Shown here piece after piece: positions 9,128 to 63,830 of a DNA stretch of 64,000 bases (positions are counted from its first letter, which is position 1; each line of letters begins with the position of its first letter). The notes beneath the pieces were generated by a model, which searched no databases, was not told where the DNA came from, and saw only the letters and a program-made list of their open reading frames with translations. The position numbers and the translations under genes were made by a program. The stretch lies in IMG/VR virus record IMGVR_UViG_3300005663_000028, positions 1-64,000 of that record, one strand, 5' to 3'. The DNA comes from a virus.

Positions 9128-9212
9128 GAGACCATGCAACACAGGCCCCACTTACACGTATAATAGTATAGAGAGAAGATGTCGCAATGGTCTCATGAGC
9201 TTCGCACCTTTT
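9128..9212 (+). promoter_or_regulatory. ACGTATAAT promoter with GAGCTTCGCAC leader element (copy A1)
   Basis: ACGTATAAT 9156-9164; GAGACCAT/ATGGTCTC inverted repeat; ATGAGCTTCGCAC 9195-9207. Confidence 0.6.
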
Positions 9213-9225
9213 AGGAGACAACAGA

Positions 9226-9417
9226 ATGGACAAGACAGATTGGTCCGATCTCAACAAAATAGCAGACATAAGTGACGAGGAATCAAAAAGGTTGAATTCC
9301 CCAAGTGGTAGAAAATGTCCAGTGTGTACTAAAGAAATGACGACCGGAGATAACGAAGCTGCTGGTATCTGTAGTCGATGTTATGAAGAAGAAAATCTAG
9401 AACAGAAATTACGTTAA
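9226..9417 (+). CDS. small zinc-finger protein
   Basis: CPVC...CSRC; AGGAG SD. Confidence 0.6.
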   Translation: MDKTDWSDLNKIADISDEESKRLNSPSGRKCPVCTKEMTTGDNEAAGICSRCYEEENLEQKLR

Positions 9418-9420
9418 CCT

Positions 9421-9440
9421 CACTTTTGTGTCTCGCTAAC
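9421..9440 (+). repeat. 20-bp intergenic element CACTTTTGTGTCTNGCTAAC (B1)
   Basis: further copies at 10279, 10944, 57877 and 61623. Confidence 0.8.
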
Positions 9441-9455
9441 CGAAAGGAATAAATA

Positions 9456-9914
9456 ATGGGAATGAGTAGTACTGCTATCTTATTTTGGGGTCTCTGTAGT
9501 GATGAGGAAGAGGAGCATTGGAAAAATATCGGCAGGGATGAAGAAGACCTCGATTACTACAATCCATTCGATGATAATGATGATGATGAGCCAGACGATG
9601 AGGATTGGGAGGAAATCTATGCCACCAAAAAAGGGTTGCATTACCCCTCAGAACCACGCAATGAGTATTGGGATGCAAAACGTAAGCTTGTCAAGGAATC
9701 GGGATGCGAAATTGGTACCCATTGTTCATTTGATTATGGAATGCCCTATATAGCAATTACAGAAAGTGAAATTCGGGCATACCAAGGATGTCCAGAAAAG
9801 ATAGAGACCCTTGAAGTGAAATCTGACTGGGAACAAAAATTACGTGAGTTTTGTGGGGTTATGGGTATTAAGTGGTCTGAGCCGAGGTGGTGGATTGTAA
9901 GTTTATATGGCTAA
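9456..9914 (+). CDS. acidic hypothetical protein
   Basis: 152-aa ORF with AAGGA SD. Confidence 0.7.
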   Translation: MGMSSTAILFWGLCSDEEEEHWKNIGRDEEDLDYYNPFDDNDDDEPDDEDWEEIYATKKGLHYPSEPRNEYWDAKRKLVKESGCEIGTHCSFDYGMPYIAITESEIRAYQGCPEKIETLEVKSDWEQKLREFCGVMGIKWSEPRWWIVSLYG

Positions 9915-9915
9915 A

Positions 9916-9954
9916 GGTATCGGGAGTACCCGATCCCATGAGCTTCGCACTTTT
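9916..9954 (+). promoter_or_regulatory. hairpin + GAGCTTCGCAC leader element (A2)
   Basis: GGTATCGGG-AGTA-CCCGATCCC-ATGAGCTTCGCAC-TTTT. Confidence 0.7.
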
Positions 9955-9971
9955 CTTTGGAAGATGATGAG

Positions 9972-10250
9972 ATGCATGAAATGCCGATACACGTACTCGA
10001 CCAACTTAAGGCTGGGTTCAAAGATCAGTTGCGCGTTTTTAGACAGGAGTTAGACCACAAACAATTGGCGGTGCTTGATGCAATTCAGAACAATCTTGGG
10101 TGTGTGGCAATTCGTAACGGCGCAGAAAAGGTGGCGTTTGACAATTTGATGGAGATCATGCAGAAGGATTACAACGTGGCACAGTTGATTTTTACTCTTG
10201 CGTACTTTGGATTTGAAGATTGTTTACGCTCTGTACTAGACGAAGAGTAG
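9972..10250 (+). CDS. hypothetical protein
   Basis: ORF 9957..10250; start uncertain. Confidence 0.6.
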   Translation: MHEMPIHVLDQLKAGFKDQLRVFRQELDHKQLAVLDAIQNNLGCVAIRNGAEKVAFDNLMEIMQKDYNVAQLIFTLAYFGFEDCLRSVLDEE

Positions 10251-10278
10251 CGAAACAAGTTCGCTCCCGTTTGACCCT

Positions 10279-10298
10279 CACTTTTGTGTCTCGCTAAC
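10279..10298 (+). repeat. 20-bp element (B2)
   Basis: identical to 9421-9440. Confidence 0.8.
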
Positions 10299-10324
10299 TT
10301 AAGAAGAAAAAGGGAAAACAAAAC

Positions 10325-10465
10325 ATGAAAAACGGTACTTATTGTTACTTGTGGGTAGCTGGTATAATACTAACGGGACACAATGCTTTTAGTGTCCTGG
10401 ATACGCTGAAAGCCAAACTGGGCGAGATTCTACCCTACGGCCCAGAAGAAGGAGATAAATCATGA
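10325..10465 (+). CDS. small hypothetical protein (46 aa)
   Basis: manual translation MKNGTYCYLWVAGIILTGH...; ATGA overlap with the next gene. Confidence 0.5.
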   Translation: MKNGTYCYLWVAGIILTGHNAFSVLDTLKAKLGEILPYGPEEGDKS

Positions 10466-10962
10466 TACAAACAGTTTTAACTTTTGACAAAAGAGACGAA
10501 GCACAAATATGGAGTGCTGTTAAAAAGCTATTGGTTAATGAGAGGCATCTCAACGACGACGGAATAACTATTGTAGAACACGGGGCTCTTCAGTTAGAAA
10601 CAGCGATTCATCAATTGAAGGATAAGTTACCTGGGGTTAAATTCGACGTATCCAAACCAGAAGTTGTTTTTCAACAGCCAACGGTTTTTGTTGAAGTTGA
10701 GGGACCATCACATCTTTATCAATATGTGGTAAAAGAATTGAATAAAAGGTTGCCGGACAAAGAAGGGATATTGGTGTCGATTAAATCAAATCGCATAAAA
10801 GTGTCGGGACGATTTCCTCTTTTAACTATACAGGATTTAGTGCAATGTTTCAGAAATGTCAATGCTCACAAAAAGCTTCAAACACACATGCAAGACTTTA
10901 GGGATAAATCTATCACTGAGAGTAAATTGAGGGAGATGCTGAACACTTTTGTGTCTGGCTAA
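10462..10962 (+). CDS. hypothetical protein
   Basis: 166-aa ORF with GGAG SD. Confidence 0.7.
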   Translation: MIQTVLTFDKRDEAQIWSAVKKLLVNERHLNDDGITIVEHGALQLETAIHQLKDKLPGVKFDVSKPEVVFQQPTVFVEVEGPSHLYQYVVKELNKRLPDKEGILVSIKSNRIKVSGRFPLLTIQDLVQCFRNVNAHKKLQTHMQDFRDKSITESKLREMLNTFVSG

Positions 10963-10963
10963 C
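10944..10963 (+). repeat. 20-bp element (B3), contains the stop codon of the upstream gene
   Basis: CACTTTTGTGTCTGGCTAAC. Confidence 0.8.
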
Positions 10964-10979
10964 TTCTAGGAGATTCGAT

Positions 10980-11345
10980 ATGTCTAAAGCAGAACAGCAA
11001 TTAATTGCTAAAGAAATGGGTTGGAAAATTTGTGATCGGGTTTTATGCGGTGGGTGTGACGATGTAACATTAGAACCATGTGGTATTTTTGTAAATGGCG
11101 AACTATTTGATCCATTCATGCACGAGCACGACCTTGTTCGACTTATGGAAAAGATGAGGAAGAAGGGGTGGATGTTCGGTATTGCGATTGGGAATTTAGG
11201 GTACAGAATGGCAGCAAGTACGATCAGAGACCCATTAACAGAGGGGCGTTCTGATTGGTGTAAAACTTTTGTGGACGCTGCTTCTTTTGCGATTATTGAG
11301 GGATTAAAGAAACGCAGTGAGAAAAAAGGAACCAAAAATGGATAA
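10980..11345 (+). CDS. hypothetical protein
   Basis: AGGAG SD; part of the + strand gene train. Confidence 0.65.
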   Translation: MSKAEQQLIAKEMGWKICDRVLCGGCDDVTLEPCGIFVNGELFDPFMHEHDLVRLMEKMRKKGWMFGIAIGNLGYRMAASTIRDPLTEGRSDWCKTFVDAASFAIIEGLKKRSEKKGTKNG

Positions 11346-11655
11346 ATCAGTAGCAATGGGAGTACACACTTTAGATCAGTCAATTGCTTATTTGTCGGAA
11401 CTAATCGGTGATGCTTCGACAATTGACAGTGAGGCTGTGTCTACTTTATTGGCTGCATTATTACCACTATTGAGAGCAATAGGGTTTACACCCTCTGAGG
11501 ATGAGGAAAGCAAGGAAGCTGTAGATTGGATTAAGCAACATTTGGATAATAGCGATAATTTTATTTACTTACTTTCGGCGTGTGCTTATTGTGGGTTGTT
11601 ATCTGCGATGTTAGCTAATGCTCAGGTTGGTGATGTGGAGCCAGATACAGAATGA
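11338..11655 (+). CDS. hypothetical protein
   Basis: ATG at 11338 with an AAGGA SD. Confidence 0.65.
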   Translation: MDKSVAMGVHTLDQSIAYLSELIGDASTIDSEAVSTLLAALLPLLRAIGFTPSEDEESKEAVDWIKQHLDNSDNFIYLLSACAYCGLLSAMLANAQVGDVEPDTE

Positions 11656-12266
11656 AGGCAGAACCAGGAGATAGGATTGGTATTACCAATCCAAAATTAG
11701 TAGGTTGGTATGGGAATACATATACTGTAATACCCCCTAAGATGTTGTTCCTCAGGGATGATGGCAAGTGGCTTGAACATGTTTTTGTTTCGCATAGGTA
11801 TGGTTGGACCATGATTAGACATGAAGACTATATGGTACTTTCAAGACCCCAGGACCGTTCGGTTTATTTGTACATTACTCCAGAAATGTATAGGGACATG
11901 TATCGATGGGCAAATGATGAAAAAGTGAAGCAGGTTGCTGATACAGTTGGACAAGTCTCTGACCAAGGAATTTGCCCTGATTGTAATGGTAGGGGTAAAA
12001 TAACAATGCTCAATTTTGATGTTGACTGTGATTGCGTGAAAAACGGAGCACGACAGAGTATCGAGAAGTTGGATAGGGTATTAAAAAAGGGGTTTGAAGG
12101 AACAGTTTGTAAAAACTGTTCATATGAGTTCTGTGAATGCGATGGAACATGTGATGAGGGTGATGGTCAATCATGTATTAGTTGTGAAGTTTGGACTTGT
12201 GGAGGTTGCTTAATAGATGGTATGTGCGGAAATTGTTTTTCCAAACTTCAGGGAGATGTTAACTGA
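11652..12266 (+). CDS. Cys-rich zinc-finger protein
   Basis: CPDCNGRG DnaJ-like ribbon plus several further CxxC pairs. Confidence 0.65.
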   Translation: MKAEPGDRIGITNPKLVGWYGNTYTVIPPKMLFLRDDGKWLEHVFVSHRYGWTMIRHEDYMVLSRPQDRSVYLYITPEMYRDMYRWANDEKVKQVADTVGQVSDQGICPDCNGRGKITMLNFDVDCDCVKNGARQSIEKLDRVLKKGFEGTVCKNCSYEFCECDGTCDEGDGQSCISCEVWTCGGCLIDGMCGNCFSKLQGDVN

Positions 12267-12693
12267 TAAATCAATTAACTGGGGAAAGAAGAGGTGTGTA
12301 ATGGGTCAGTGTGGGTGTTATGAAGGAAATCAAGCATATAGAATCAAGGCTCCCAACGGGTGGTATGTGATAGAGCTACTTCCAGGCTGCAATTATTGTG
12401 ATCATGGTCCTGGACTATCTATTTGTCACCCAGAAGCAATGGATCATCTAGAAGGAGGGGATATTCTTTGTTTACCAGAGCTTCCTTGGTGTGGTCCTGG
12501 AGAATTCAAGTTGGCTACATTCAAATGTGGGTTATCTCCTACAGAATCTGGAGAAGCGGCTGTGAAATGTTTTGTGTCCGAAGACTGTGAATGCAAAATA
12601 GACGAAGATTTAGCAGACATTCTTGGGGAAGATTTTTGGAAGGAGTATTTAGATAAGTCTCCTAGCTTAGTTGAGGTAAAAAATGAAGTTTAG
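12256..12693 (+). CDS. Cys-containing hypothetical protein
   Basis: ORF 12217..12693; start at 12256 or 12301. Confidence 0.6.
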   Translation: MLTDKSINWGKKRCVMGQCGCYEGNQAYRIKAPNGWYVIELLPGCNYCDHGPGLSICHPEAMDHLEGGDILCLPELPWCGPGEFKLATFKCGLSPTESGEAAVKCFVSEDCECKIDEDLADILGEDFWKEYLDKSPSLVEVKNEV

Positions 12694-12928
12694 ACGATGG
12701 TGCCGAAATTGTAATTGTGAACAAGAAGTTGCTCCTATTATGGGGTACGAAGATTCCTGGAGAAAACTGTTTTGGCTTTTAGAGTTTCTTAGAACAGAGG
12801 AGACGATAGCAGAAGCTACGTTCGATGAATATATGGAACATCTTATGTTTTTTGGGAAACTGGCTTTTGATGCTGACGATGAAATAGAAAAGAGATTAAA
12901 AGAGGAGGAGGTTTCTGATAATGACTGA
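12683..12928 (+). CDS. hypothetical protein
   Basis: overlapping gene train; N-terminal CxxC. Confidence 0.6.
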   Translation: MKFRRWCRNCNCEQEVAPIMGYEDSWRKLFWLLEFLRTEETIAEATFDEYMEHLMFFGKLAFDADDEIEKRLKEEEVSDND

Positions 12929-13244
12929 TGGATTTTCTGACAGAGCCACTCCCAGTCCGGGAGAATACGATAAAATTACTTGTGGTGTTTGTGGTTCACT
13001 TATGGATGTTAAGAGAAACGTGATGAGTGCTACGGGAATGGCTGAAGCTATGTCTAAGAGACAACATTTACACGATGTTTTTTGGTGTTCTGATATTGAA
13101 GCAGATTGGCATATTCAAGCTAAGGCGATTCAGGAGTTGGCCAGAAAAACGCCTAGCCAAAAAACAGAAATTGCGCTATTGGTAGAGGCGTTGGATATTA
13201 TCAGAAATCGTTGTGCTACTAAAAAGGTGAGTAAATTTCAATGA
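12921..13244 (+). CDS. hypothetical protein
   Basis: GGAGG SD; CGVC motif. Confidence 0.65.
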   Translation: MTDGFSDRATPSPGEYDKITCGVCGSLMDVKRNVMSATGMAEAMSKRQHLHDVFWCSDIEADWHIQAKAIQELARKTPSQKTEIALLVEALDIIRNRCATKKVSKFQ

Positions 13245-13468
13245 TTTCATTAAGACGAATAGATACTAAATTTGGAGTGTCGCTTTATGGGGCTTTGGTT
13301 GGACACTTGGTGAATACTACTCGTGGATGGGTATACCTTTCTTCGGAATATAAACCGTTGATTTATGGCCGTAGTAGTGACTTGCTGAAAGATGAGCTTG
13401 TCGAGGTGAATGATATATTGGCGTTGCTTAACACTCCACAACTAAGGGGTTGTAATGAAGAAAATTAA
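13241..13468 (+). CDS. hypothetical protein
   Basis: ATGA overlap with the upstream gene. Confidence 0.55.
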   Translation: MISLRRIDTKFGVSLYGALVGHLVNTTRGWVYLSSEYKPLIYGRSSDLLKDELVEVNDILALLNTPQLRGCNEEN

Positions 13469-13721
13469 TTGGCGACTTAATATTGCGTGTGATTTTTGGC
13501 GAGCCCAGGTTGGCAATGTTGTGCTTTCCTGTTATAGGGATCAGGGTAATGACTGGTTGGCATTTGTTGATTTTAACGGGTCCACGAAAGAGGGGGATTG
13601 TCATAAATCATTGGGTTCGGCGAGGCAAGAGGCTATTGATTTAGCTTGTGAATTGCTTCTTGAGTATCGTGAGGCTCTGGAAAAAGAGATGGATAATTTT
13701 GAGATGACAGGAGTTAATTAA
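13455..13721 (+). CDS. hypothetical protein
   Basis: gene train. Confidence 0.6.
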   Translation: MKKINWRLNIACDFWRAQVGNVVLSCYRDQGNDWLAFVDFNGSTKEGDCHKSLGSARQEAIDLACELLLEYREALEKEMDNFEMTGVN

Positions 13722-13722
13722 C

Positions 13723-13998
13723 ATGCAATATTGTTATATTTGTGCCCAAGAGATTCTCGCAAGTAATCTTCCACACAAATGTGATTCTGGTACTCCAGAA
13801 TCACGTAACTGCGTTGATTGTGTCTTAAGGGATATTGAAATTGTTCGCCTGAAAGGCGAACTTATGTGTTTTGAGGAAGTGGTAAAGAAGGTGTGTGATG
13901 TAGAATTAATACCCGCTGCGTGCAGTGCTGTTTGGAGAATGAAGTTGGAAAAGTTGAAGCCACTGGTTGATGAGCTTCGTAAACTTCTAGAGGAATAA
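13723..13998 (+). CDS. hypothetical protein
   Basis: AGGAG SD; CxxC motifs and coiled coil. Confidence 0.6.
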   Translation: MQYCYICAQEILASNLPHKCDSGTPESRNCVDCVLRDIEIVRLKGELMCFEEVVKKVCDVELIPAACSAVWRMKLEKLKPLVDELRKLLEE

Positions 13999-14246
13999 CA
14001 TGTTTTGGGTTATTTTGGTTGTTGGTCTTTTCGCTGCTGGTTATACTGGGTATGGGTTTTGGCAATTAAAGGATTTTGATAAATGAGACGATTTTTGTGT
14101 TTTTTTGGTTTTCATGATCTTGTGAGAATTAAATCGTATGATATTTTTTGTAGGGTGCTTTATGACTGTCATGAAATTTGGGAATGTGAAAGATGCGGTG
14201 TTTGGTTGCCCACGAATTTTCCCGTAGATGATGGAGATTGATTGTT

Positions 14247-15002
14247 ATGGATAGATTAGATTGGAACAACAGAAATCGATTGTCGTGGTGGTTTCCTAAG
14301 ATACCAAAAGAGATATTAGTCCCAGAAACACGGATTTTTCCGAAATGCGTTTGGGCAGATTGTGGTGCAAACCATTTTGTTCTTATTGGTGTTTTGGATG
14401 GTAGGAAACCAGAAGCGTTTGATACTTTGTGTTGGCAACTAAAAGCGGCGGGAGACGAGCTTGGATATCCATTTTTTCTGAGAACTGATTATCTGAGTGG
14501 TAAACATGGATGGAACGATACCTGTTTCGTGACACACGCAATCGAAATTCCTTGTCACGTAGCTCGGTTGATTGAAGAAAGTATTGGGGCTGACATACTT
14601 GGGTTTCCACCAGATTGTTGGATAGCTAGAAAAATGATTTCTACTATCCCTTCGTTTTTTGCTTTTCATGGAGACATGCCCATCGTGAAGGAACGACGAT
14701 ACTTTGTGCAAGACAGCAAAGTGTTGTGTCACCACCCCTATTGGCCTTCAGAGGCTTTTGACTTTGTTCGTGTGTCTATTGATAGTTGGCCCACGCAATT
14801 GGACGAGATGAATTATCAAAGTTCAGGTGAAATTAGTTTGTTGTCTGATTTGAGTGCCAAGGTGGGCGGTGTAGTGGGTGGTGCATGGTCGATTGATTGG
14901 TTGTGGTCAGAGCCAGAACAACAGTGGTACTTGATAGATATGGCTGAGGCTGAAACAAGCTATCACTGGAAAAATTGTTTCAATTTTTCGGACGTTAAAT
15001 AA
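14247..15002 (+). CDS. ATP-grasp-like protein
   Basis: FFLRTD..SGKH, E.RYFV, WSIDW and YLIDMA segments match ATP-grasp strand motifs. Confidence 0.5.
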   Translation: MDRLDWNNRNRLSWWFPKIPKEILVPETRIFPKCVWADCGANHFVLIGVLDGRKPEAFDTLCWQLKAAGDELGYPFFLRTDYLSGKHGWNDTCFVTHAIEIPCHVARLIEESIGADILGFPPDCWIARKMISTIPSFFAFHGDMPIVKERRYFVQDSKVLCHHPYWPSEAFDFVRVSIDSWPTQLDEMNYQSSGEISLLSDLSAKVGGVVGGAWSIDWLWSEPEQQWYLIDMAEAETSYHWKNCFNFSDVK

Positions 15003-15030
15003 TTTTATTTTTCTGGGATATTTTGAGTAG

Positions 15031-15093
15031 TTAGACGTATCACAAGGTATCAGGGAATTGGGCATCCCAATTCCTGGAGCTTCGCACTTTTTT
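15031..15093 (+). promoter_or_regulatory. ACGTATCAC + hairpin + GAGCTTCGCAC leader element (A3)
   Basis: TTAGACGTATCACAAGGTAT-CAGGGAATTGGG-CAT-CCCAATTCCTG-GAGCTTCGCAC-TTTTTT. Confidence 0.7.
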
Positions 15094-15105
15094 AGGAACG
15101 CAGAT

Positions 15106-15294
15106 ATGGACACTAAAGTAGATTATAAGACAGTAGAAGTACCAAGGTTTATTGCGTGGGATGATTTTAAGGTGCTCAGTGTTTTACGAAGTGAGTCTCA
15201 TGATGGTTGGAGGTTGGTTGGTGTTCAAAAGAGTATCTTAGGTCGCCAGATGTATATTTTTTCTAAGTCGCTTGGGCAGAAGGTGGTCGTATGA
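15106..15294 (+). CDS. small hypothetical protein
   Basis: ATG at 15106 with an AGGA SD after element A3. Confidence 0.55.
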   Translation: MDTKVDYKTVEVPRFIAWDDFKVLSVLRSESHDGWRLVGVQKSILGRQMYIFSKSLGQKVVV

Positions 15295-15599
15295 ACAAAA
15301 TACAATTACACTGTATGTGTTGCGATCGTATTCTTGAAGGGGAGAAATGGGACGATAACCCGTTGACTATTAACCCCGTATATAATGGTCTAATTTTTCG
15401 ATCTAACGGTAACTTTGGATCAACTATTTTTGATCCCATGCCCATTGGTAATGAAGAGTTTCTTCAAGTTGTTATCTGTGATTTTTGTGTCATGCAGAGG
15501 GACGAGCGAGTAACGAGGGTTTATAACATAAAGACAACAAAAACTGCCGAGTCAGAATCTTTTGAGGTGGAGGAAAGGGAAGAAAATGATCAACACTGA
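15291..15599 (+). CDS. hypothetical protein
   Basis: gene train; CxxC motifs. Confidence 0.6.
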   Translation: MNKIQLHCMCCDRILEGEKWDDNPLTINPVYNGLIFRSNGNFGSTIFDPMPIGNEEFLQVVICDFCVMQRDERVTRVYNIKTTKTAESESFEVEEREENDQH

Positions 15600-16242: not shown

Positions 16243-16412
16243 AATGAAGAAGCATTGGTATTATGGTCATCCTGGGTTTTTCCGTGGCCTTGCCCTCTTG
16301 GTAGGGACAGTGATTATTGTCGTTCCGCTTTGGACCCTTCTCCAGTCTCCAGGCTGTAATTTCTATTTTGGATCACAGATTGTAGACATTCTGAACCAGG
16401 AGAGCCAAACTG

Positions 16413-17476: not shown

Positions 17477-17481
17477 GGAGG

Positions 17482-23284: not shown

Positions 23285-23657
23285 TATTTTCCCACTTGTC
23301 CAACCACTCGCTTGGGTGATTGTCGTAATGTTGTATTAAATATGTTAGATACATCAAACTGTCGCTAACGAAAGGGGTTAAGCTTTGTCCCAATGAGTGT
23401 ATTTCTACTAAAGTAAACCATCCCACACCCATTGTGGTATAATGATTCGGTCTTAATTCCCCTTGCCACTGGTCACAAATAGAAACTATGGTACGATATT
23501 GGCTTGTCTGCAAGTTACAAAGTTGCCTAAGCCGATTACCGCACACCCCTACATCTTTTCTTAACTTGCCTGGGAATGTCCATGTTCTGTCAGAAGTTTG
23601 TTGAACCAACAGAAACCGATCACTGTTGCGTAGTATTATCCAGGCCATTTCTATCAT
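23268..23657 (-). CDS. degenerate NUDIX-fold-like protein
   Basis: AWIILRNSDRFLLVQQ...WTFPG resembles a NUDIX N-terminus, but the Nudix box is absent. Confidence 0.4.
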   Translation of the reverse strand: MIEMAWIILRNSDRFLLVQQTSDRTWTFPGKLRKDVGVCGNRLRQLCNLQTSQYRTIVSICDQWQGELRPNHYTTMGVGWFTLVEIHSLGQSLTPFVSDSLMYLTYLIQHYDNHPSEWLDKWENSDASV

Positions 23658-23705
23658 CGGTACTCCCTTCTATATCAAGGGATTCCGATACTATTATACA
23701 CCAGT
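23657..23705 (-). promoter_or_regulatory. GTGTATAAT promoter followed by a GTATCGG...CCGAT hairpin (A-like)
   Basis: minus strand GGTGTATAATAGTATCGGAATCCCTT...AAGGGAGTACCGAT; no GAGCTTCGCAC tail. Confidence 0.5.
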
Positions 23706-23724: not shown

Positions 23725-24285
23725 TCATCTGTTATCGCCGTCACCCCGTAATGACCCATCACTTTTGCGTCTTGCTAATTTATCAAGATTTGCGGTGTAT
23801 ACTTCTTCTAGGGTAAAACCGAGTCTATCGGCGAGTTCTCCAATACTCGCTATGATTGTAGACAAATATGGTTTTAATGCTTGCCAATTACCGATTATTG
23901 CTTCTTCATAGTAAATGTTTTCGAGACACTCAGCAATAAGGTTTGCTTGACGGTTCATGAGTAATACTAAGCGAAAGTCGTTTAGTTTTTTAACTCGTTG
24001 AATTATAAAAACCCCTCTCATTTCATACATTGTTTTTAGGTCTATTTTTGTATCACAACAAATATTGGCTAGATACCAGCAGCAGTCTCCGAGTTCTTTC
24101 TTTATACCATTGGATCGTTCAGAGGTCATTGTCCCACCGTCATCTCGGAGAAGTTTCTTGTATTTTTCAGCTACCTCTCCACATTCACCAACAAGACCAA
24201 GTGCTGGGTATATAATTTGGCTACCCTCTATGTCCAGATAGATAGCTGTGCTTCTTGCTCTGTCTTGATATTCAGATAGGTCCAT
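23725..24285 (-). CDS. MazG-like nucleotide pyrophosphohydrolase
   Basis: YPALGLVGECGEVAEKYKK, KELGDCCWYL, NLDKLARR...GDNR. Confidence 0.85.
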   Translation of the reverse strand: MDLSEYQDRARSTAIYLDIEGSQIIYPALGLVGECGEVAEKYKKLLRDDGGTMTSERSNGIKKELGDCCWYLANICCDTKIDLKTMYEMRGVFIIQRVKKLNDFRLVLLMNRQANLIAECLENIYYEEAIIGNWQALKPYLSTIIASIGELADRLGFTLEEVYTANLDKLARRKSDGSLRGDGDNR

Positions 24286-27291: not shown

Positions 27292-28005
27292 TTATTCATA
27301 ATTTACCCCCAGGAATTCTGCTGTTTTCTGTATGGTCGGCTCACTCACTTCTATGCCAACACAATCTAACCCGAGTCTTTGACACACTATCGCTGTGGTC
27401 CCAGACCCAATAAACGGGTCCAACACACGACCCCCTGGGGGACAATGACCCATTACAATACGTTCTACCAAAGCTTCTGGTAACTGTGTTGGGCAATGTT
27501 TTCTTTTCTCTTTGTGGGTGCCGCAGATACGAGGGAACTCCCATGTGTTTTCAGGCATTTTACCTCCGGGAGCCGCTCTCTTGTCATTGTATACTGTTTG
27601 CCTAGCACTAGGCACCTTAATTTGTTCTGGTCGAACATAATCAGAACCTAGCCAATAGATGGGACGATAGCACAGGGCGTATTTTCCATTTCTTGTCTGA
27701 TCTTGCCCAAAAGTATAGTGCCACTGTAATCTTTGAATTAGTGGGATACCTAATTCTTCGATGGCGTTTTCGACCACCCTAGTCCATTTTTCGTTGAATG
27801 TCAGAAATATTGGACCATCGGTAATATCGGCCATTTTGCAGAGCCAGCAAAGAATATTGGCCTCATATTCCTCCACAGAAATCTTATCTGTGAACCCATC
27901 GTATTTTAAGCTTATGTTGTCTGGTGGGTCGCCAATGATTAAATCGACCTTCCCGATAGTGGCATGGCCGATTAGCTCGAATCTTCCATGTATTAGTTCA
28001 ATCAT
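27292..28005 (-). CDS. N4/N6 DNA methyltransferase (beta class), atypical DPPD motif
   Basis: DLIIGDPPDN, H.TQLPE.LVERIV, VLDPFIGSGTT. Confidence 0.85.
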   Translation of the reverse strand: MIELIHGRFELIGHATIGKVDLIIGDPPDNISLKYDGFTDKISVEEYEANILCWLCKMADITDGPIFLTFNEKWTRVVENAIEELGIPLIQRLQWHYTFGQDQTRNGKYALCYRPIYWLGSDYVRPEQIKVPSARQTVYNDKRAAPGGKMPENTWEFPRICGTHKEKRKHCPTQLPEALVERIVMGHCPPGGRVLDPFIGSGTTAIVCQRLGLDCVGIEVSEPTIQKTAEFLGVNYE

Positions 28006-28016
28006 TCTTGTCCCCA

Positions 28017-28073
28017 AAAAGGTGCGAAGCACATGGTATTAGTAGTATTCTCTAATACCATTATACGTCCCAC
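28017..28073 (-). promoter_or_regulatory. ACGTATAAT + hairpin + GTGCTTCGCAC leader element (A4)
   Basis: minus strand GTGGGACGTATAAT-GGTATTAG-AGAATACTA-CTAATACC-ATGTGCTTCGCAC-CTTT. Confidence 0.75.
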
Positions 28074-28183
28074 AACCAATTTTGTTTCAAAAAAAACCAA
28101 AAAAATCAAAAAACTTGGAACATTTTTGCACAAACTCCCTCTCTATATATATGGAGGGGTATTTTTATCGGACGTTGAATATT

Positions 28184-28207: not shown

Positions 28208-28387
28208 ATGAAGAATGAGAAAACTAAAATTGAGTGTCGTTTGACGACTTGTGGGACAAAGGTAGTTAACGCCAAGGTTTTGGATGACTTGGTGGTTCCC
28301 GATCCTGATCCGGCTATTGGGAAACAAATCATCGCTGATGCTGTTGAAGAGGAAAAGGATGATGAGAATCAGCCAGAAGCTTCTTAA
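28208..28387 (+). CDS. small hypothetical protein
   Basis: ATG at 28208 with an AGGGG SD. Confidence 0.55.
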   Translation: MKNEKTKIECRLTTCGTKVVNAKVLDDLVVPDPDPAIGKQIIADAVEEEKDDENQPEAS

Positions 28388-28913
28388 CGAAGCGGAACCG
28401 ATTATTAAACGACTGGCTAAGTCGCGTAGCGCTAATGGTGCTTTTGCATACTACGAACGCGATGATGTTTTTCAGGAAGTTTGGTGCATGTGCTTAGAGG
28501 CTCTAGGTCGATATGATTCAGAAATAGGGCCTGTGGAAAATTATCTAGTTAGACATGTCACCAATCGCCTCAAGAACCTGAAAAGAGATAAGTATTTTCG
28601 TCCGGGTTCTGATCCCCCAACTTCTGGTCTAGCTCGCACCCGAATGAATTTAGTAAATGCATTGCCATTAGATGGCGGTGATATCGCAGAGCAAGGGGTG
28701 TTGTTATGTTCTGGTAAAATTAGCGTTGAGCCCATTGAACATAGTGTGTGTAATGAAACTTTATTGTGTATTATCAGGAAATTACCCGAAGAGTTACGGG
28801 GGCCATTCGAAGAATTAATTTGCAACAACAAGGTCAGTATTCAGTTAGTTGATGAGATAAGACAGAAGGTTGCTGAGATTTTGAGTGAGAGGGAATCTGA
28901 TGTCGAAAGATAA
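28359..28913 (+). CDS. phage sigma factor (sigma70 region 2; region 4 appears reduced)
   Basis: ERDDVFQEVW..CLEAL.RYD....ENYL...V.NRLKNLKR. Confidence 0.75.
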   Translation: MMRISQKLLNEAEPIIKRLAKSRSANGAFAYYERDDVFQEVWCMCLEALGRYDSEIGPVENYLVRHVTNRLKNLKRDKYFRPGSDPPTSGLARTRMNLVNALPLDGGDIAEQGVLLCSGKISVEPIEHSVCNETLLCIIRKLPEELRGPFEELICNNKVSIQLVDEIRQKVAEILSERESDVER

Positions 28914-40536: not shown

Positions 40537-40616
40537 ATCTAAAAATTTTCACACAAAAGCTAGTTTTTTATCGACAATATTTGGGACAAAATTACAGGTT
40601 GTACGTATAATAGAGT

Positions 40617-56662: not shown

Positions 56663-56686
56663 GATGCGACTATTGAATAATCAATG

Positions 56687-56722
56687 AATCGGGGTGGTTT
56701 TCGGACCGCCTCGATTTTTTTT
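56687..56722 (+). terminator. rho-independent terminator
   Basis: AATCGGGGTGGT-T-TTCG-G-ACCGCCTCGATT stem with G.U pairs, then a T run. Confidence 0.8.
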
Positions 56723-56780
56723 ATTTTATACGCAATAAAGACGTCGTTTGTGCGTATAATGATATGGAGGTAATTCGGAC

Positions 56781-57599: not shown

Positions 57600-57645
57600 T
57601 TCTCGGACCATAAAATTTTTGTTTTTTGATGGGACATTTGGGGGT

Positions 57646-57699
57646 GTGGGACGTACAATGGTATTGGGAAGTACCCAATACCGTGAGCTTCGCACCTTT
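57646..57699 (+). promoter_or_regulatory. ACGTACAAT + hairpin + GAGCTTCGCAC leader element (A5)
   Basis: GTGGGACGTACAAT-GGTATTGG-GAAGTAC-CCAATACC-GTGAGCTTCGCAC-CTTT. Confidence 0.75.
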
Positions 57700-57712
57700 G
57701 AAGAGTAGAACG

Positions 57713-57895
57713 ATGACTAGAGCAAAAGGACAATGTTCCAAATGTAGTAGAATGACATCCGAGGAACGATTTCGTTTTTTTGAACTTCTTTGGAAGTGTG
57801 ACTTAATATTAGAGAAGAAACTGTGGCAAGGAATACTTTGCAAAAATTGTCATGAAGAATTAGTTCAAAAACTGATCACTTTTGTGTCTAGCTAA
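57713..57895 (+). CDS. small zinc-finger protein
   Basis: CSKC...CKNC; starts after element A5. Confidence 0.55.
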   Translation: MTRAKGQCSKCSRMTSEERFRFFELLWKCDLILEKKLWQGILCKNCHEELVQKLITFVSS

Positions 57896-57896
57896 G
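57877..57896 (+). repeat. 20-bp element (B4)
   Basis: CACTTTTGTGTCTAGCTAAG. Confidence 0.75.
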
Positions 57897-57919
57897 CTGT
57901 CACAACAAAGAGAACCTTA

Positions 57920-58723: not shown

Positions 58724-58749
58724 AAGAAAAAAATTGGGATTGTAATGAA

Positions 58750-60675
58750 ATGAACATCAAACAACTAGAAAAAGCAAGTGCTACATATTATACTGGCAGT
58801 CCTATAATGACTGACGCCGAATTTGATGCGGCTATAGCCGAATTGCGTCAAAATGATCCAGATCACCCATTCTTGAAACGCATCGGCGCACCAACCCCCG
58901 GAACTGTTAAGGCTAAGCATCAAATTCCTATGGGTAGCTTAGCCAATGCAAACAACGAAAAAGAACTCAAAACGTGGATACTTAGATGTGAATTAGCCAT
59001 ACCACACTCTACTTCTGCCTTGTGTCTATCGCACAAACTGGACGGCTCTTCCCTAGAACTTATTTACGAGAACGGTTCATTTGTGCAGGCAATTACTCGT
59101 GGAGACGGGGAAGAGGGGGAGGATGTAACTAAAAATGTCCTACTTTCAAGAAATGTTCCTCTCTCGGTTAATCCATCAATAACTTCCGTTAGGTGTGAAT
59201 GTTTGATCCATAAGAAGGACTGGGCGGAACATTTCGGGGGAGATGCAAATCCGAGAAATTCTGCCGCTGGAACACTACGAAGACATGATGGTAAAAATGC
59301 TCAATATCTTCGCTTTTATGCATTTGATATGATGGTAAATGGTGATGTTCCAAACTCCGAGACCACCAGAATGTTGGTTTTAGCAAAATGGTTCAATGTT
59401 CCAAATAACTTGTTCGTATCCTCCAACGAAAAAGCATATTTACCAGAACATACACAATTGGGGTACACGATAAATTGGTGTAAAGAACAGGAAACAAAAA
59501 GAGACAACTTTCCGTATGAAATTGACGGTGTTGTTGTTAAAATAGACAACCGCGAAATATCAGAACAATTAGGAATTACGGACAATCGCCCAAAGGGACA
59601 AATCGCCGTCAAATTCGAGCCCCGTGGTGGCGAAACCATCCTAAACAATGTGGTGTGGCAAGTGGGTCATACGGGCGAGATAACCCCCGTGGGAAAGGTG
59701 AACCCAGTGGGCGTCGGTGGAGTCACAGTCCGCAGTGCTAACCTATACAACACGGACGAGATTGAGAGACTGGGGATACGCATTGGAGATACAGTAGAAG
59801 TAGTACGAGCCGGAGATGTAATTCCCAAGGTCACCAAACTCGTTTGTTCTAGTACAGATGGTGTCGAGATCAAACCTCCGAAGAAGTGCCCGGAGTGTGG
59901 AAGCAAGACAGAAAAAGATGGGGTTAGGCTTTATTGTCAAAATAGATGGTGTGGTGGTCGATCATTTGCCCGTGTTATGACATGGATTAAAAAGCGAAAT
60001 ATCCTACACATAGGAGAAGGTTTGGTTGAGTCTGCCGCAATAGACGAGACTCGTCAATTGTATGTTCTGTCTTATGCCGACTGGGCTAGGGTCAAGGTGG
60101 GTAATGGTGTGTGGGGTAAAAAAAGAGCAAGTAGTGTTGTGGCGGCTTTGGAGAAATCAAAGAATGTTACACTAGCTGATTTCTTGGGTTCCATCGGAAT
60201 ACCAGGAATTGGTAGAACGTTGACTCGTCAATTATGTGATAGTCTAGATGATAGACCCAATAGCCAATTAACGCTCAGCGATATGTTTCAGTTACTACCG
60301 TCACTAATAATGAAACAGGCGGGGTTTGGAGAATCTAGAGCCAATGATTTTTGTAATTGGTTGAAAGAATACAGAGAAGAAATTAGTGATCTGGCTTTGT
60401 TTATGAATTTTGAGGAGGAAGTAAAAATGGAAAGCGACAACAGGCAGTTTGATGGAGAAGTAATTTGTTTTACCGGTAAGTCTCCAAGGCCGCGTGTGGA
60501 GATGAGTCAATTGGCAGAATCCGCTGGTGCTTCAGTTAGTAGTTCTGTGAGTTCAAAAACAACTATCCTTGTCATAGCTGATGTTGAGAGTCAATCGAAA
60601 AAGGCGGTTAAGGCGAGAGAAATGGGAGTCAGGCTGATGTCCCCCGAAGATTTTTTGGATTTTTGTGGGATATAG
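58750..60675 (+). CDS. ligA: NAD-dependent DNA ligase
   Basis: HKLDG adenylation motif, TRGDG..GEDVT, NPRN.AAG, YEIDGVV.K, OB fold, zinc finger, BRCT. Confidence 0.96.
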   Translation: MNIKQLEKASATYYTGSPIMTDAEFDAAIAELRQNDPDHPFLKRIGAPTPGTVKAKHQIPMGSLANANNEKELKTWILRCELAIPHSTSALCLSHKLDGSSLELIYENGSFVQAITRGDGEEGEDVTKNVLLSRNVPLSVNPSITSVRCECLIHKKDWAEHFGGDANPRNSAAGTLRRHDGKNAQYLRFYAFDMMVNGDVPNSETTRMLVLAKWFNVPNNLFVSSNEKAYLPEHTQLGYTINWCKEQETKRDNFPYEIDGVVVKIDNREISEQLGITDNRPKGQIAVKFEPRGGETILNNVVWQVGHTGEITPVGKVNPVGVGGVTVRSANLYNTDEIERLGIRIGDTVEVVRAGDVIPKVTKLVCSSTDGVEIKPPKKCPECGSKTEKDGVRLYCQNRWCGGRSFARVMTWIKKRNILHIGEGLVESAAIDETRQLYVLSYADWARVKVGNGVWGKKRASSVVAALEKSKNVTLADFLGSIGIPGIGRTLTRQLCDSLDDRPNSQLTLSDMFQLLPSLIMKQAGFGESRANDFCNWLKEYREEISDLALFMNFEEEVKMESDNRQFDGEVICFTGKSPRPRVEMSQLAESAGASVSSSVSSKTTILVIADVESQSKKAVKAREMGVRLMSPEDFLDFCGI

Positions 60676-60682
60676 GGGTTGG

Positions 60683-60736
60683 TTAGACGTATAATAAGGT
60701 ATCGGGGGTACCCGATCCCGGAGCTTTCACATTTTG
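60683..60736 (+). promoter_or_regulatory. ACGTATAAT + hairpin + GAGCTTTCAC leader element (A6)
   Basis: TTAGACGTATAATAA-GGTATCGGG-GGTA-CCCGATCCC-GGAGCTTTCAC-ATTTT. Confidence 0.75.
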
Positions 60737-60746
60737 GAGACCTAAG

Positions 60747-60932
60747 ATGGATGACGACATAAAAGGGTTCTTTGTTGGATTGGTAGTTGGGTTAATCATA
60801 ATGGCAATAACGATATCGTCTCCGTTCGTGGGTTGCAGATCAGACTTTCAGAAAGAAGCAATTGGGAATGGATGTGGAAAACTGAACTGCGATATAAACG
60901 GTGCGTGTGAATTTGAATGGAATTGCGAATAG
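60747..60932 (+). CDS. small membrane protein
   Basis: N-terminal transmembrane helix; GGAG SD. Confidence 0.6.
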   Translation: MDDDIKGFFVGLVVGLIIMAITISSPFVGCRSDFQKEAIGNGCGKLNCDINGACEFEWNCE

Positions 60933-61033
60933 GAGAGATTAGATGGGTTGTTGTACTCTTAGTTTTATCCTTGGTGTGCTTGTTATGGCCATTATAGCAG
61001 GAATGATTGTTCGTAAGTAACAGGAGGGACGGT

Positions 61034-61198
61034 ATGAGAAAAACAATGACACCAGAAGAAGTATCGCAAAAATGTTTTGAACAATTTTCCAATTTAACGA
61101 TAAATGTGTCTGATGAAGATAGATGGGAAGCTGCGGCAGAACTTCAGGCTACCCTTGAGGGTGTCTTGATGGAAAGAGATGAACTGAATAATGAGTAG
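61034..61198 (+). CDS. small hypothetical protein
   Basis: ATG at 61034 with an AGGAGG SD. Confidence 0.55.
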   Translation: MRKTMTPEEVSQKCFEQFSNLTINVSDEDRWEAAAELQATLEGVLMERDELNNE

Positions 61199-61282
61199 TA
61201 GCCGAAGAAAAACAGAAACTGTTACGGTAAGGTCTCCCGTTAAATGTCCTCATTGTGGGGAAAACTGTTTAAGGAGCATCGA

Positions 61283-61597
61283 ATGACAACAACAAGAGAT
61301 GGACACCAACTGTCAATTGGTGAGAAATACACGGTAGTATCATTTGTTGAGGATACTCAAGATATTGAGTCGACAACCGAGTGTATCTATTGGGGCAATT
61401 GGGTTCAAGACAATACTCATTGTTTAGGTGCCATGGGAAATAGTTGTTCTGGTTGGTTCCCACAGACCCTTAATATACATCGTTTTATCCCGATAGATGT
61501 CGATGAGAACTTTGAGCTTATAAAATGTGAGGTTGGAGAATTGGTAGTCAAACACCCATCTGTAATAGAGTCGGTTGTTGTAAGGCGACTTAAGTAA
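61283..61597 (+). CDS. hypothetical protein
   Basis: ATG at 61283 with an AAGGAG SD. Confidence 0.6.
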   Translation: MTTTRDGHQLSIGEKYTVVSFVEDTQDIESTTECIYWGNWVQDNTHCLGAMGNSCSGWFPQTLNIHRFIPIDVDENFELIKCEVGELVVKHPSVIESVVVRRLK

Positions 61598-61622
61598 TAT
61601 CTAGGGGGAGCCCAGAGCCCTC

Positions 61623-61642
61623 CACTTTTGTGTCTTGCTAAC
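61623..61642 (+). repeat. 20-bp element (B5)
   Basis: CACTTTTGTGTCTTGCTAAC. Confidence 0.8.
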
Positions 61643-61657
61643 TCCAAAGGAGAAAAA

Positions 61658-61810
61658 ATGGACGACAATAAAAAAATCGAAATGATTTCAATTCCTATCA
61701 CTACATATAATCAACTGATTAAAGATCGGGAGTGGTTAGAAGCATTAGAGGCTGCTGGGGTGGATAACTGGGAGGGTTGTGATGTGGCCCGCGAATCTCT
61801 CGACAACTAA
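61658..61810 (+). CDS. small hypothetical phage protein
   Basis: AAGGAG SD; WLEALEAAGVDNWEG motif common in small phage proteins. Confidence 0.65.
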   Translation: MDDNKKIEMISIPITTYNQLIKDREWLEALEAAGVDNWEGCDVARESLDN

Positions 61811-61975
61811 GGTGTATCCCGATAACAGAACGGTTATCGTAAGAAACGTTGATCCAGAATGTGTCCCTGACTGGTTAGAATGGGGTTATTTGCTCTGTCG
61901 AATGGCTAATTTTGGTACTTTGACAATTGATCCATTGACGAAGAGACCAAAGAACTGTGGTATAGTGGTATTGAA

Positions 61976-62551
61976 ATGAAAACACTAATAAGTGAACAAC
62001 AACTTCAGACCAGAATTACGGAAATGGCTCTTGAGATCGATTCGTATTACATGGCTCAGGAGTGGTATCGGAACACACAAGAGCCAGTGATTGTTGTTGG
62101 TGTATTAACAGGTGCTTTATTTTTCATGGCTGATTTGATTCGGAAATTATCCATTCGTATCGAACTTGATTTTATGAGGGTATCAACGTATCCAGGCAAG
62201 GCAACAGTAGCCCAGAAACCAAAAATTATTACTCCACCAGACAGATCATTGCGAGATGCTCATATATTATTGGTAGATGATATCCTGGATACCGGTAAGA
62301 CAATTAAGGTGGTAAAAAAATGGTTGTCATGGCCAGTTCCTGAAGATATATGGACTTGTGTATTACTACGTAAGCCGGATAAGAATTCTGAAGTAAAAGC
62401 AGATTTTGTGGGGTTTGATGTTCCTGATGAGTTTTTGATAGGATATGGATTGGATCACGACGGAAAATTTAGAGAAATGCCATACGTGGCATTTCTTTCA
62501 GAAGAGGAGATGAGTAATGAATCTTTCGCAAGCAAGAAAGAAGTTAGATGA
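61976..62551 (+). CDS. hpt: hypoxanthine phosphoribosyltransferase
   Basis: VGVL.GA..FMADLIR, ILLVDDILDTG.T, LL.K, GF.VPDEF..GYGLD. Confidence 0.93.
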   Translation: MKTLISEQQLQTRITEMALEIDSYYMAQEWYRNTQEPVIVVGVLTGALFFMADLIRKLSIRIELDFMRVSTYPGKATVAQKPKIITPPDRSLRDAHILLVDDILDTGKTIKVVKKWLSWPVPEDIWTCVLLRKPDKNSEVKADFVGFDVPDEFLIGYGLDHDGKFREMPYVAFLSEEEMSNESFASKKEVR

Positions 62552-62825
62552 AATTAGTAAATCTACTGGAACTAAACACGTAAAGGTGTTGGTAAGTGAA
62601 CTGTGCAAAGTATTGCACTCAGTACTAAGTGCGATAGAACGTATTGAAAAATCTATGCATCCTTTGCAGACAATTACTTTTCCGAAACAGAACCCAGTGC
62701 CGCCAACTGAGACGGGTCTCCCTACAACAAACCCCATTGATCCACCGTTTACTCCAAGGCCATTTAGGTCTCCACCAATTAAAGACCCATTTGATGCAAG
62801 GCAGCTTGAGGGGGATTCAGAGTAG
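62517..62825 (+). CDS. hypothetical protein, Pro-rich tail
   Basis: GAGGAG SD. Confidence 0.55.
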   Translation: MNLSQARKKLDEISKSTGTKHVKVLVSELCKVLHSVLSAIERIEKSMHPLQTITFPKQNPVPPTETGLPTTNPIDPPFTPRPFRSPPIKDPFDARQLEGDSE

Positions 62826-63793
62826 TGTTCAACACGCCGGAACATACATGTGATATTGTCGAGGTACGGCTAGAGCCGCATCCGAATGCCGATAAGCTAA
62901 GTTTGGTCCGGGTCGGCGATTATCAATGTGCGGTGAGAACAACCGATTGGTCCGATGGAGACCTTGCTGTTTTTATTCCTCCGGACAGTGTTGTGCCAGA
63001 CACCAAAGAGTTTGAGTTTTTAGGCAAACACCGTCGCATTAAGGCCCGCAAGCTACGGGGTGAGTGGTCGGTTGGTTTGTTAATTCCGGCACCTGTTGGG
63101 GCTGATCTTGGACAGGACTGTATGGAGATGTTGGGGATAGTTCATTATGAGCCGCAAGTACACGGGCATTTTTCGACGGGTGGAGACAATGTAACACCAC
63201 CAGAAGGATTTTTCCCAAAGTATGATGTATTAAATTTCCGCAAGTACTCCGATCTGTTTGGTGATGGGGAGGAAGTTGTTGTTACCGAAAAAATACACGG
63301 TGCGAATGCACGTTTTGTTTGTGTCAATGATACTATGTATTGCGGTTCTCGTAGCAACTGGAAAAGGATGGACCCCAATAATCTGTGGTGGAAAGTTTTG
63401 GAACGACATCCTGCACTGGAGGCATGGCTACGACACAATTATGGGTGGGGTATTTATGGAGAAGCTTTCGGGCAGGTTCAGAATTTGAAATACGGCGCTG
63501 TACCCGATAATGACATTTTCTTTGCAACTTTCGATATTCTTGATGGAAATAGGTGGATGGACTTTGACGAGGCCCGTAGTGTTGGGGCTCCTCTTCCTTG
63601 GGTTCCATTGGTTTATAGAGGGCCTTTTGATAAAGATAAGATTCTTGCGATGGCAGAAGGGGATAGTTTGTGGCCCGGAGCGAATCATCATCTTGAGGGC
63701 GTGGTCGTAAAACCAGTAAAGGAACGGACTGATCGTCGACTTGGAAGGGTGCAATTGAAGATAGTAGGAAATAAATATCTTTCCAAAAGCTAA
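62825..63793 (+). CDS. RNA ligase (DRB0094 / Rnl2-like family)
   Basis: HPNADKL OB-like start, TEKIHG adenylation motif, YGE.FG, FDI, EGVVVKP, LK. Confidence 0.88.
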   Translation: MFNTPEHTCDIVEVRLEPHPNADKLSLVRVGDYQCAVRTTDWSDGDLAVFIPPDSVVPDTKEFEFLGKHRRIKARKLRGEWSVGLLIPAPVGADLGQDCMEMLGIVHYEPQVHGHFSTGGDNVTPPEGFFPKYDVLNFRKYSDLFGDGEEVVVTEKIHGANARFVCVNDTMYCGSRSNWKRMDPNNLWWKVLERHPALEAWLRHNYGWGIYGEAFGQVQNLKYGAVPDNDIFFATFDILDGNRWMDFDEARSVGAPLPWVPLVYRGPFDKDKILAMAEGDSLWPGANHHLEGVVVKPVKERTDRRLGRVQLKIVGNKYLSKS

Positions 63794-63830
63794 GGTATCG
63801 GACAAGCCGATCCCATGGAGGAGAAGCACA
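63794..63830 (+). promoter_or_regulatory. partial hairpin leader element (A7)
   Basis: GGTATCGG-ACAAG-CCGATCCC-ATG...; tail degenerate. Confidence 0.5.

Follow-up and report, generated by a model that had tools for sequence, protein, structure and literature searches.

The DNA stretch analysed here (the window, 64,000 nucleotides in length) is the first 64 kb of the IMG/VR virus record IMGVR_UViG_3300005663_000028, a single record of 179,553 bp that is complete according to CheckV; the whole record of this phage is denoted G000, and labels of the type G001 to G011 designate related phage genomes. The window contains several copies of a short cassette located in front of genes, which combines a promoter, a hairpin and a conserved 11-nt word (GAGCTTCGCAC, hereafter box A). 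The terminase, the portal and further structural genes are located at 32-56 kb of the window, and small open reading frames (ORFs) and nucleic-acid enzymes fill its left part (9-28 kb) and the block at 56-64 kb. The enzymes of these two regions are an exonuclease-like protein, a DNA methyltransferase, a NAD ligase, a phosphoribosyltransferase and an RNA ligase. A search of phage records retrieved no near DNA relative among cultured phages, and the terminase and portal proteins gave only weak PHROG matches, their best cultured matches being 24-27% identical.

All the copies of the cassette listed in an earlier note on this DNA were recovered in the window, where they stand, as that note had also proposed, ahead of non-structural genes, i.e., ORFans, the DNA methyltransferase gene and the ligase/RNA ligase block. 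Their components, including the Shine-Dalgarno (SD) sequences, are as follows:

9127-9228, plus strand: copy 1, with a ACGTATAAT box (9156-9164), a degenerate local hairpin, box A (9197-9207), a T-run, an SD and the ATG (9226) of a 63-amino-acid ORFan.
9916-9974, plus strand: copy 2, without promoter, with a hairpin (9916-9937), box A (9940-9950), a T-run and an ATG (9972).
14990-15108, plus strand: copy 3, with a T-rich tract, a -35 GGGATA (15015-15020), a -10 TATCAC (15038-15043), a long hairpin (15046-15076), box A (15077-15087) and an ATG (15106).
28003-28115, minus strand: copy 4, with a T-rich tract, a -35 GAAACA (28088-28083), a -10 TATAAT (28065-28060), a hairpin (28059-28035), the box A variant GTGCTTCGCAC (28032-28022) and the ATG (28005) of the DNA methyltransferase gene.
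57605-57715, plus strand: copy 5, with a T-rich tract, a -35 GGGACA (57631-57636), a -10 TACAAT (57654-57659), a fully paired 9-bp hairpin (57660-57682), box A (57685-57695) and an ATG (57713).
60640-60749, plus strand: copy 6, with a T-rich tract, a -35 GGGATA (60667-60672), a -10 TATAAT (60690-60695), a hairpin (60698-60719), the box A variant GAGCTTTCAC (60721-60730) and an ATG (60747).
63794-63836, plus strand: copy 7, without promoter and without box A, with a hairpin (63794-63814), an SD and an ATG (63834).
23655-23703, minus strand: a derived relative, with the extended -10 promoter TGGTGTATAAT and a TATCGG...CCGATG hairpin bearing a nested loop insertion.

The hairpins of copies 2 to 7 have predicted folding energies of -10 to -19 kcal/mol. 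The hairpin of copy 2 starts one base past the stop codon of the upstream gene (TAA, 9912-9914), the hairpin of copy 7 lies directly 3' of the RNA ligase stop codon, and the derived relative has its start codon within the 3' arm of its hairpin. Box A occurs five times in the window with at most one mismatch (at 9197, 9940, 15077, 28032 on the minus strand and 57685), versus 0.39 occurrences expected, and none of 100 shuffled sequences reached five; it was found nowhere else in the 179.5-kb genome. The sequence ACGTAYAAT is likewise present five times in the window, versus 1.2 expected. Outside of the window, the combination of promoter and hairpin without box A is present at 68.5 kb, where it precedes a tRNA gene, and on the minus strand at 100.6, 124.1 and 135.7 kb of G000. 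The promoter of copy 1 is bracketed by a 9-bp inverted repeat (9127-9135 and 9187-9195; TGAGACCAT and ATGGTCTCA), which could fold only in DNA or in read-through RNA. A degenerate look-alike of the element, GGTATTTCC...GGAAATCC followed by GAGCTTTGCCC, is located at 173917-173961 of G000 (plus strand), antisense to the 5' region of a minus-strand gene, with a weak model E value of about 0.4.

The element is also present in nine other phage genomes of 35-181 kb, which were found by exact-pattern scans of viral contigs followed by whole-record searches. On shared genes, the protein identity of these phages to the window phage is about 53-60% (43% for G006); two IMG/VR records, G002 and G003, are fully contained, at 100% identity, in G001 and G004, respectively, though the samples differ. 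In the hairpin of the element, two outer pairs (G-R/Y-C) are followed by a U.C mismatch and by an inner stem of 6-7 bp, opened by an A-U pair, that carries a loop of 3-5 nt; the hairpin starts 0-3 nt past the -10 box and is separated from box A by a linker of 1-3 nt. This layout, ((.((((((....)))))).)), was found in 17 of the 22 box A copies from nine genomes. The stem foot is conserved in sequence (G-R-U-A ... U-C-Y-C, including the U.C mismatch) with a free upper stem and loop, and the stems vary widely across genomes (AUCGGG, AUCAGG, AGCAGCG, AGCGGC, AGCAUC, AACAUC and GUGUCAGC).

Pairing is maintained throughout this variation. Seven copies from five genomes could be aligned without gaps, and in this alignment all of the 56 cells are standard pairs and six of the eight pairs show double changes; none of 500 shuffled alignments reached the covariation score, and registers slid along the alignment were only 26-52% paired. 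The covariance model built from these seven copies and run on the related genomes retrieved 31 copies in ten genomes (98.7% of 233 cells paired, double changes in seven of the eight pairs); a first model based on the stem type of the window (R1) had matched only the copies of G000 and G001, so that a broader one (R2) was needed. A metagenome scan with a pattern that required only the -10 box, G-R-T and box A, without demanding any pairing, led to 48 distinct sites, about 33 of which have exactly this hairpin, the remainder being structureless chance matches. Among 36 distinct metagenome copies, 98.9% of the cells are paired and seven of the eight pairs again show double changes. The alignments of 31 and 36 rows are model-fitted and contain related sequences, so that their shuffle counts overstate significance, an overstatement of which the gap-free set of seven copies and its slid controls are independent. 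Selection on the pairing of the stems, which the earlier note had deduced from compensating changes and loops of varying length, is thus borne out by the covariation in all three sets. The hairpin does not correspond to any RNA family of Rfam: no match was obtained at gathering thresholds over the window, nor at E values up to 1 on the loci of two relatives that carry seven copies. No U-tract is present 3' of the hairpins on the sense strand and a terminator scan does not call them, indicating that they are not intrinsic terminators by sequence.

The 11-nt tail of the element proved to be conserved in sequence as well. Box A occurs in 13 exact copies in the 1.41 Mb of the ten genomes, versus 0.3-0.7 expected, and all 13 share the same leader position and orientation. 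In a set of 21 copies, conservation reaches at least 86% at every one of its 11 positions, against 30%-70% at most flanking positions, and more than 30 metagenome contigs also carry the word. Since box A remains unchanged beside freely varying spacers, stems and loops, in genomes whose proteins are about 55-60% identical, these data argue for a constraint acting on the box A sequence itself. The parts of the cassette, their fixed order and register, the selection on pairing and the conservation of box A across diverged genomes are thereby established.

In the window, a T-run and an SD follow box A, and the start codon lies 15-22 nt further on. In G007, G008 and G010, the ATG of small ORFs lies directly 3' of box A, and a GGAG at the junction of linker and box A is located 8-10 nt before this ATG, so that box A is the ribosome-binding site in these genomes. 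Since a hairpin without box A precedes a tRNA gene in G000, the hairpin goes with promoter and transcription, and box A with protein-coding genes. Several other roles for box A were considered and rejected. An upstream mini-ORF running across box A was discounted because no more than about 9 of 22 copies have an ATG or GTG in the linker; a GWGC-UUC-GCAC hairpin inside box A is unsupported, with an A.A mismatch in most copies and copy 6 incapable of forming it; a conserved pairing between box A and the SD is not predicted by RNAalifold, and the most that could form is a CUUC/GGAG match of 3-4 bp.

Another conserved leader word, box B, was detected as well:

9424-9439, plus strand: box B (TTTTGTGTCTCGCTAA).
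10282-10297, 10947-10962, 57880-57895 and 61626-61641, plus strand: further copies of box B.
23763-23778 of the window and 67636 of G000: additional copies of box B.

Box B follows the pattern TTTTG(T/C)GTCTNGCTAA, lies 19-30 nt before start codons and stands alone before five genes of the window; in the relatives, it is present as TTTTGTGTCTYGC 7-16 nt 3' of box A. The strict pattern occurs 63 times in the ten genomes, versus 0 for the pattern read backward, an excess that is partly due to homologous coding sequence (a lipoprotein signal peptide). A helix between box A and box B (GAGC/GCUC, CGCA/UGUG) can be drawn and is not consistently predicted, and box A as a -35 element for box B was rejected on account of a spacing that varies from 7 to 16 nt. 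Three of the relatives also share a separate conserved non-coding stretch near one record end, GTGCTTCGCAA then GTTTTTGACC (G007 160390, G008 157836, G010 38382).

The promoter of the cassette had been described in the earlier note as lacking a recognisable -35 element, which turned out to be wrong: copies 3-6 carry a -35-like hexamer, G(G/A)(G/A)A(C/T)A (GGGACA, GGGATA or GAAACA), exactly 17 bp upstream of the -10 box, together with a T-rich upstream tract. The same class of promoter is present at two other places in the window:

40583-40611, plus strand: GGGACA-N17-TATAAT with a T-rich upstream tract, without hairpin or box A, preceding an HNH/Mom-like endonuclease gene.
56732-56760, plus strand: GCAATA-N17-TATAAT with a T-rich upstream tract, without hairpin.

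A pattern scan of the ten related genomes revealed 44 promoters of this class (T-rich tract, G(G/A/C)AACA-type hexamer, 17 bp and TATAAT). Of these, 16 are associated with a hairpin of -6 kcal/mol or below whose first pair is located 1-9 nt past the -10 box, most commonly at nucleotide 3 (nine cases). The motif can be read as a promoter for a primary sigma factor (nnAACA-17-TATAAT with an UP-like tract) and equally as one of the extracytoplasmic function (ECF) type (TGnAAC-N16-CGTA). The sigma-W class promoter of B. subtilis is TGAAAC-N16-CGTA with T-rich sequence near the -35 element (PMC5758882), and the AAC core, the 16 nt to CGTA and the neighbouring T-rich sequence fit most phage copies. 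The phage itself encodes two small sigma factors, both with ECF-superfamily matches and both kept in the relatives, the first of which is located next to copy 4:

28284-28913, plus strand: phage sigma factor 1, 209 amino acids, with a Sigma70_r2 domain and a weak ECF-superfamily match, divergent from copy 4.

The phage TATAAT is, however, better conserved than the CG that precedes it, several copies showing GGTATAAT, so that we lean slightly towards a -10 element of the primary-sigma type. Sigma factor 1 is nevertheless a candidate reader of this promoter class. A promoter for a single-subunit RNA polymerase was set aside for want of a T7-type RNA polymerase gene in the phage, a weak argument as the control genomes gave no match either. 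The second sigma factor is encoded, together with a tyrosine recombinase (134646-135149), in an operon at 133.4-135.8 kb of G000 (minus strand) whose promoter belongs to the same class and carries a GATAACGGG/CCCGTTATC hairpin. The divergent region that separates copy 4 from the operon of sigma factor 1 contains a terminator-like hairpin with a T-run (28138-28159), and the first small ORF of that operon (28208) has the extended -10-like sequence TGTGTATAAA. A second promoter-like class, TGGTGTATAAT, with an extended -10 and no -35, is present at 10362, 23699 (minus strand), 34842 and 42112 of the window and at 89073 and 159255 of G000, and precedes other genes, structural ones included.

As sigma factors are conserved in the clade, a bacterial host is expected. 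A capsid scan left the host ambiguous: a capsid gene 76% identical to that of the window is present in the 4.9-Mb chromosome of a 'Candidatus Heimdallarchaeota' metagenome-assembled genome (MAG; CP070695.1, 58.6-65.6 kb), and weaker relatives are present on Phycisphaerales and Balneolaceae MAG contigs. Box A occurs in these MAG genomes at chance level only. The Heimdallarchaeota record may contain a mis-binned or mis-assembled phage region, and the reading of the -10 box as an archaeal TATA box, suggested by this capsid homologue, was rejected given the conserved sigma factors.

The genes located behind the cassettes are mostly ORFans. In the window, six of the seven first genes have no homologue in the nine relatives, and the next genes do have homologues. 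Copy 3 is the positional equivalent of the cassette that heads a conserved operon in the relatives, and the equivalent cassettes are followed in each genome by unrelated small first ORFs. Cassettes can also be densely packed, with five copies in 6 kb in G011. As the cassettes lie mainly before ORFans, in a gene-variable early region, they are probably sites of recombination as well. Within a genome, the stems are more similar to each other than to their positional equivalents elsewhere, as expected if cassettes recombine.

This organization agrees in every point with the published layout of the promoter-early stem-loop (PeSL) cassettes of T4-type phages, which consist of an AT-rich region, a sigma70-like promoter, a stem-loop, an SD and an ATG, the stem-loop being located in any of five positions, one of them just downstream of the -10 box (PMC2839356, PMC4122927). 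PeSLs are about 100 bp long and present in tens of copies, mostly before ORFans in hyperplastic regions (PMC2839356, PMC4122927), and one PeSL stem-loop lowered the expression of a reporter to the same degree as a terminator known to be strong (PMC2839356). The cassettes described here share with the PeSLs of RB49/phi1, PST and nt-1 the AT- or T-rich upstream region and sigma70-like -35 and -10 elements (PMC2839356, PMC4122927), a stable stem-loop (matching the subclass with the hairpin just downstream of the -10 box), an SD and start codon at the 3' end, a size of about 100 bp, many copies mostly before ORFans in gene-variable regions, and a sequence specific to each phage group. They differ in that both the position and the architecture of the hairpin are fixed, where PeSLs fall into five positional subclasses, in lacking GC-tract stems, in the existence of promoter-less units of hairpin and box A, and in an extra conserved linear word (box A, with box B in the relatives) that is absent from the PeSL descriptions. 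Moreover, the phage is not a T4-type myovirus, the terminase and portal matches being only distant, so that we regard the cassette as a functional analogue of PeSLs and not as a member of the described lineage.

We therefore propose, with a rough probability of 0.55, that the element is a modular PeSL-like regulatory cassette, shared by a clade of uncultured sediment phages with large genomes (110-180 kb). The full module would comprise, from 5' to 3', a T-rich upstream tract, a -35-like TGnAAC(A), a 17-bp spacer, (C)GTATAAT, the hairpin 0-3 nt after the -10 box, a linker of 1-3 nt, box A and a T-run (or box B in the relatives), followed by the SD and the start codon. A conserved T-A step, formed by the first pair of the inner stem, is located 5-6 nt past TATAAT, about where RNA polymerase is expected to start. 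This position and the fixed register of the hairpin to the -10 box suggest that transcription starts at this step, inside or at the foot of the 5' arm, and that the mRNA probably has the hairpin at its 5' end. A base-paired 5' end is the configuration that protects bacterial mRNAs from 5'-end-dependent decay, and the hairpin may act in this way and also insulate the downstream ribosome-binding region. The promoter-less copies located after stop codons would do the same job within polycistronic RNA, as structural insulators or as processing or stability points, and box A would be a single-stranded leader word, either read by a conserved trans-acting factor or part of the ribosome-loading region. 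Among the functions that the earlier note had listed for the leader, a stability or processing element thus appears to be the most plausible.

Hairpins that stabilise transcripts from their 5' end are known from the E. coli ompA leader, the T7 gene 10 leader and the stabiliser of Bacillus phage SP82. As in these cases, a stable hairpin is present at or near the predicted transcript start, its stem sequence is free if paired, and the ribosome-binding region downstream is unstructured. The phage element differs in its conserved stem foot and fixed 11-nt word, which no simple stabiliser needs, and in a transcript start that is predicted from promoter geometry. It is conceivable, if rather doubtful, that the stem foot (G-R-U-A ... 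U-C-Y-C with its U.C mismatch) and box A together form the binding site of a clade-specific phage factor, e.g., an RNA-binding regulator, a polymerase modifier or a nuclease guard, that would co-ordinate an early ORFan regulon. If true, this would be an undescribed leader-RNA control system, and the genome-specific types of lower stem would reflect co-evolution with the factor.

Several observations weigh against the proposed cassette model. The transcript start is predicted from promoter geometry; with standard sigma70 spacing, transcription would start 6-9 nt past TATAAT and the two outer pairs would fall outside of the primary transcript, and yet the outer pair 4-42 covaries (GC in 16 and AU in 12 copies of the 31-copy set). 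In copies 4 and 5, whose hairpins directly adjoin the -10 box, that spacing would leave most of the 5' arm untranscribed. Either the start site lies upstream of the position expected from the standard spacing, or it is in read-through RNA that the complete stem is important, as for the promoter-less copies; the second possibility would support an attenuator or processing role instead. Part of the covariation may correspond to inherited stem types spread by gene conversion. The terminator role demonstrated for one PeSL is not evident here, no U-tract following the hairpins, and the only close genome pairs (G002/G001 and G003/G004) are 100% identical, so that shuffling at cassettes would not show in them. 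Finally, the distance between box A and the start codon varies from 0 to about 77 nt across genomes, RNAalifold predicted no consensus structure in the region from box A to the SD, and the role assigned to box A is a guess.

The alternative that survives best, which we nonetheless consider unlikely, is that the hairpin acts mainly on RNA transcribed from further upstream, a role proposed for PeSL stem-loops too, and does so as an attenuator, a terminator, a 3'-end structure or a processing structure; each cassette would then close the preceding unit and start expression anew, with box A as an endoribonuclease cleavage or entry site. Such a role would account for the promoter-less copies located exactly at stop codons and for the covarying outer pairs, which are too near the -10 box for a primary transcript and present in read-through RNA, and it has a precedent in the PeSL stem-loop that matched a strong terminator in a reporter (PMC2839356). 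The hairpins, however, have no sense-strand U-tract and the terminator scan is silent on them. Processing by RNase III needs a helix longer than 8-9 bp, so that the stems of 8-9 bp are too short, and a phage-encoded RNase III was discarded as processor, no gene for it having been found in the phage. RNase E sites are AU-rich, whereas box A is not.

Less likely again is a promoter-proximal control of transcription (pausing, antitermination or factor loading, in the manner of nut, put or ops), in which the hairpin and the 11-nt word, on either the nascent RNA or the non-template strand, would be recognised and RNA polymerase modified for read-through of the early region. Antitermination RNAs of this type are the nut site of lambda (boxA and boxB) and the put site of HK022, and the succession of a hairpin and a linear word is the layout of boxB/boxA-type and of hairpin-dependent pause signals. 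In the phage cassettes, a promoter-proximal leader likewise combines a hairpin with a strongly conserved word that follows directly at a fixed distance; the conserved stem foot, beneath an upper stem and loop that are free, suggests that a factor recognises it, and the phage carries its own sigma factors. The nut/put-like signal put forward in the earlier note is nevertheless not backed by the comparison: the element matches these sites neither in sequence nor in architecture, it resembles neither boxA nor boxB and has no match in Rfam, the order of hairpin and word is reversed relative to lambda nut, and the loops, which are what N-type proteins read, are not conserved. There are also several copies per operon, including promoter-less ones right after the stop codons of small genes (as in the dense array of G011), instead of one site per early operon upstream of terminators, and the terminator scan found no clear terminators downstream. 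A NusG/RfaH-type factor was considered as reader and no such gene was found in the phage.

We regard as improbable that box A, with box B, corresponds to DNA sites for a phage DNA-binding regulator, the hairpin being a separate feature. Mycobacteriophage L5 has oriented 'stoperator' sites of this kind, and both phage words are asymmetric, 11-13 bp long and present in many copies in short intergenic regions in one orientation to the gene; the tyrosine recombinase gene leaves a temperate lifestyle possible. Box A is nevertheless located nearly always 1-3 nt past the hairpin or its C-rich remnant, indicating one composite signal, there are only 5-6 copies per genome, restricted to one region, and a repressor was not identified, no search for one having been made. 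The least probable alternative, that the cassette has no function beyond its promoter and owes its conservation to history, one copy having spread by duplication and gene conversion, would explain the greater likeness of stems within a genome and the association with ORFan genes, but not that box A is identical at about 55-60% protein identity while adjacent spacers and loops differ freely, nor that 99-100% of the stem cells are paired across many stem sequences.

What is new compared to the known PeSLs is the clade itself, a sharply defined hairpin with a sequence-conserved foot, and box A and box B, with a possible link to phage-encoded sigma factors. Running and reshuffling early accessory genes by means of cassettes that combine a promoter with a hairpin seems to be a general strategy of large phages, and the present case extends it to a clade of uncultured sediment phages. 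The conservation of box A outside of coding sequence points to a specific reader, be it the ribosome, the polymerase, a nuclease or a phage protein, and the element provides a marker by which early regions and transcription units of phages of this clade can be located in metagenomes.

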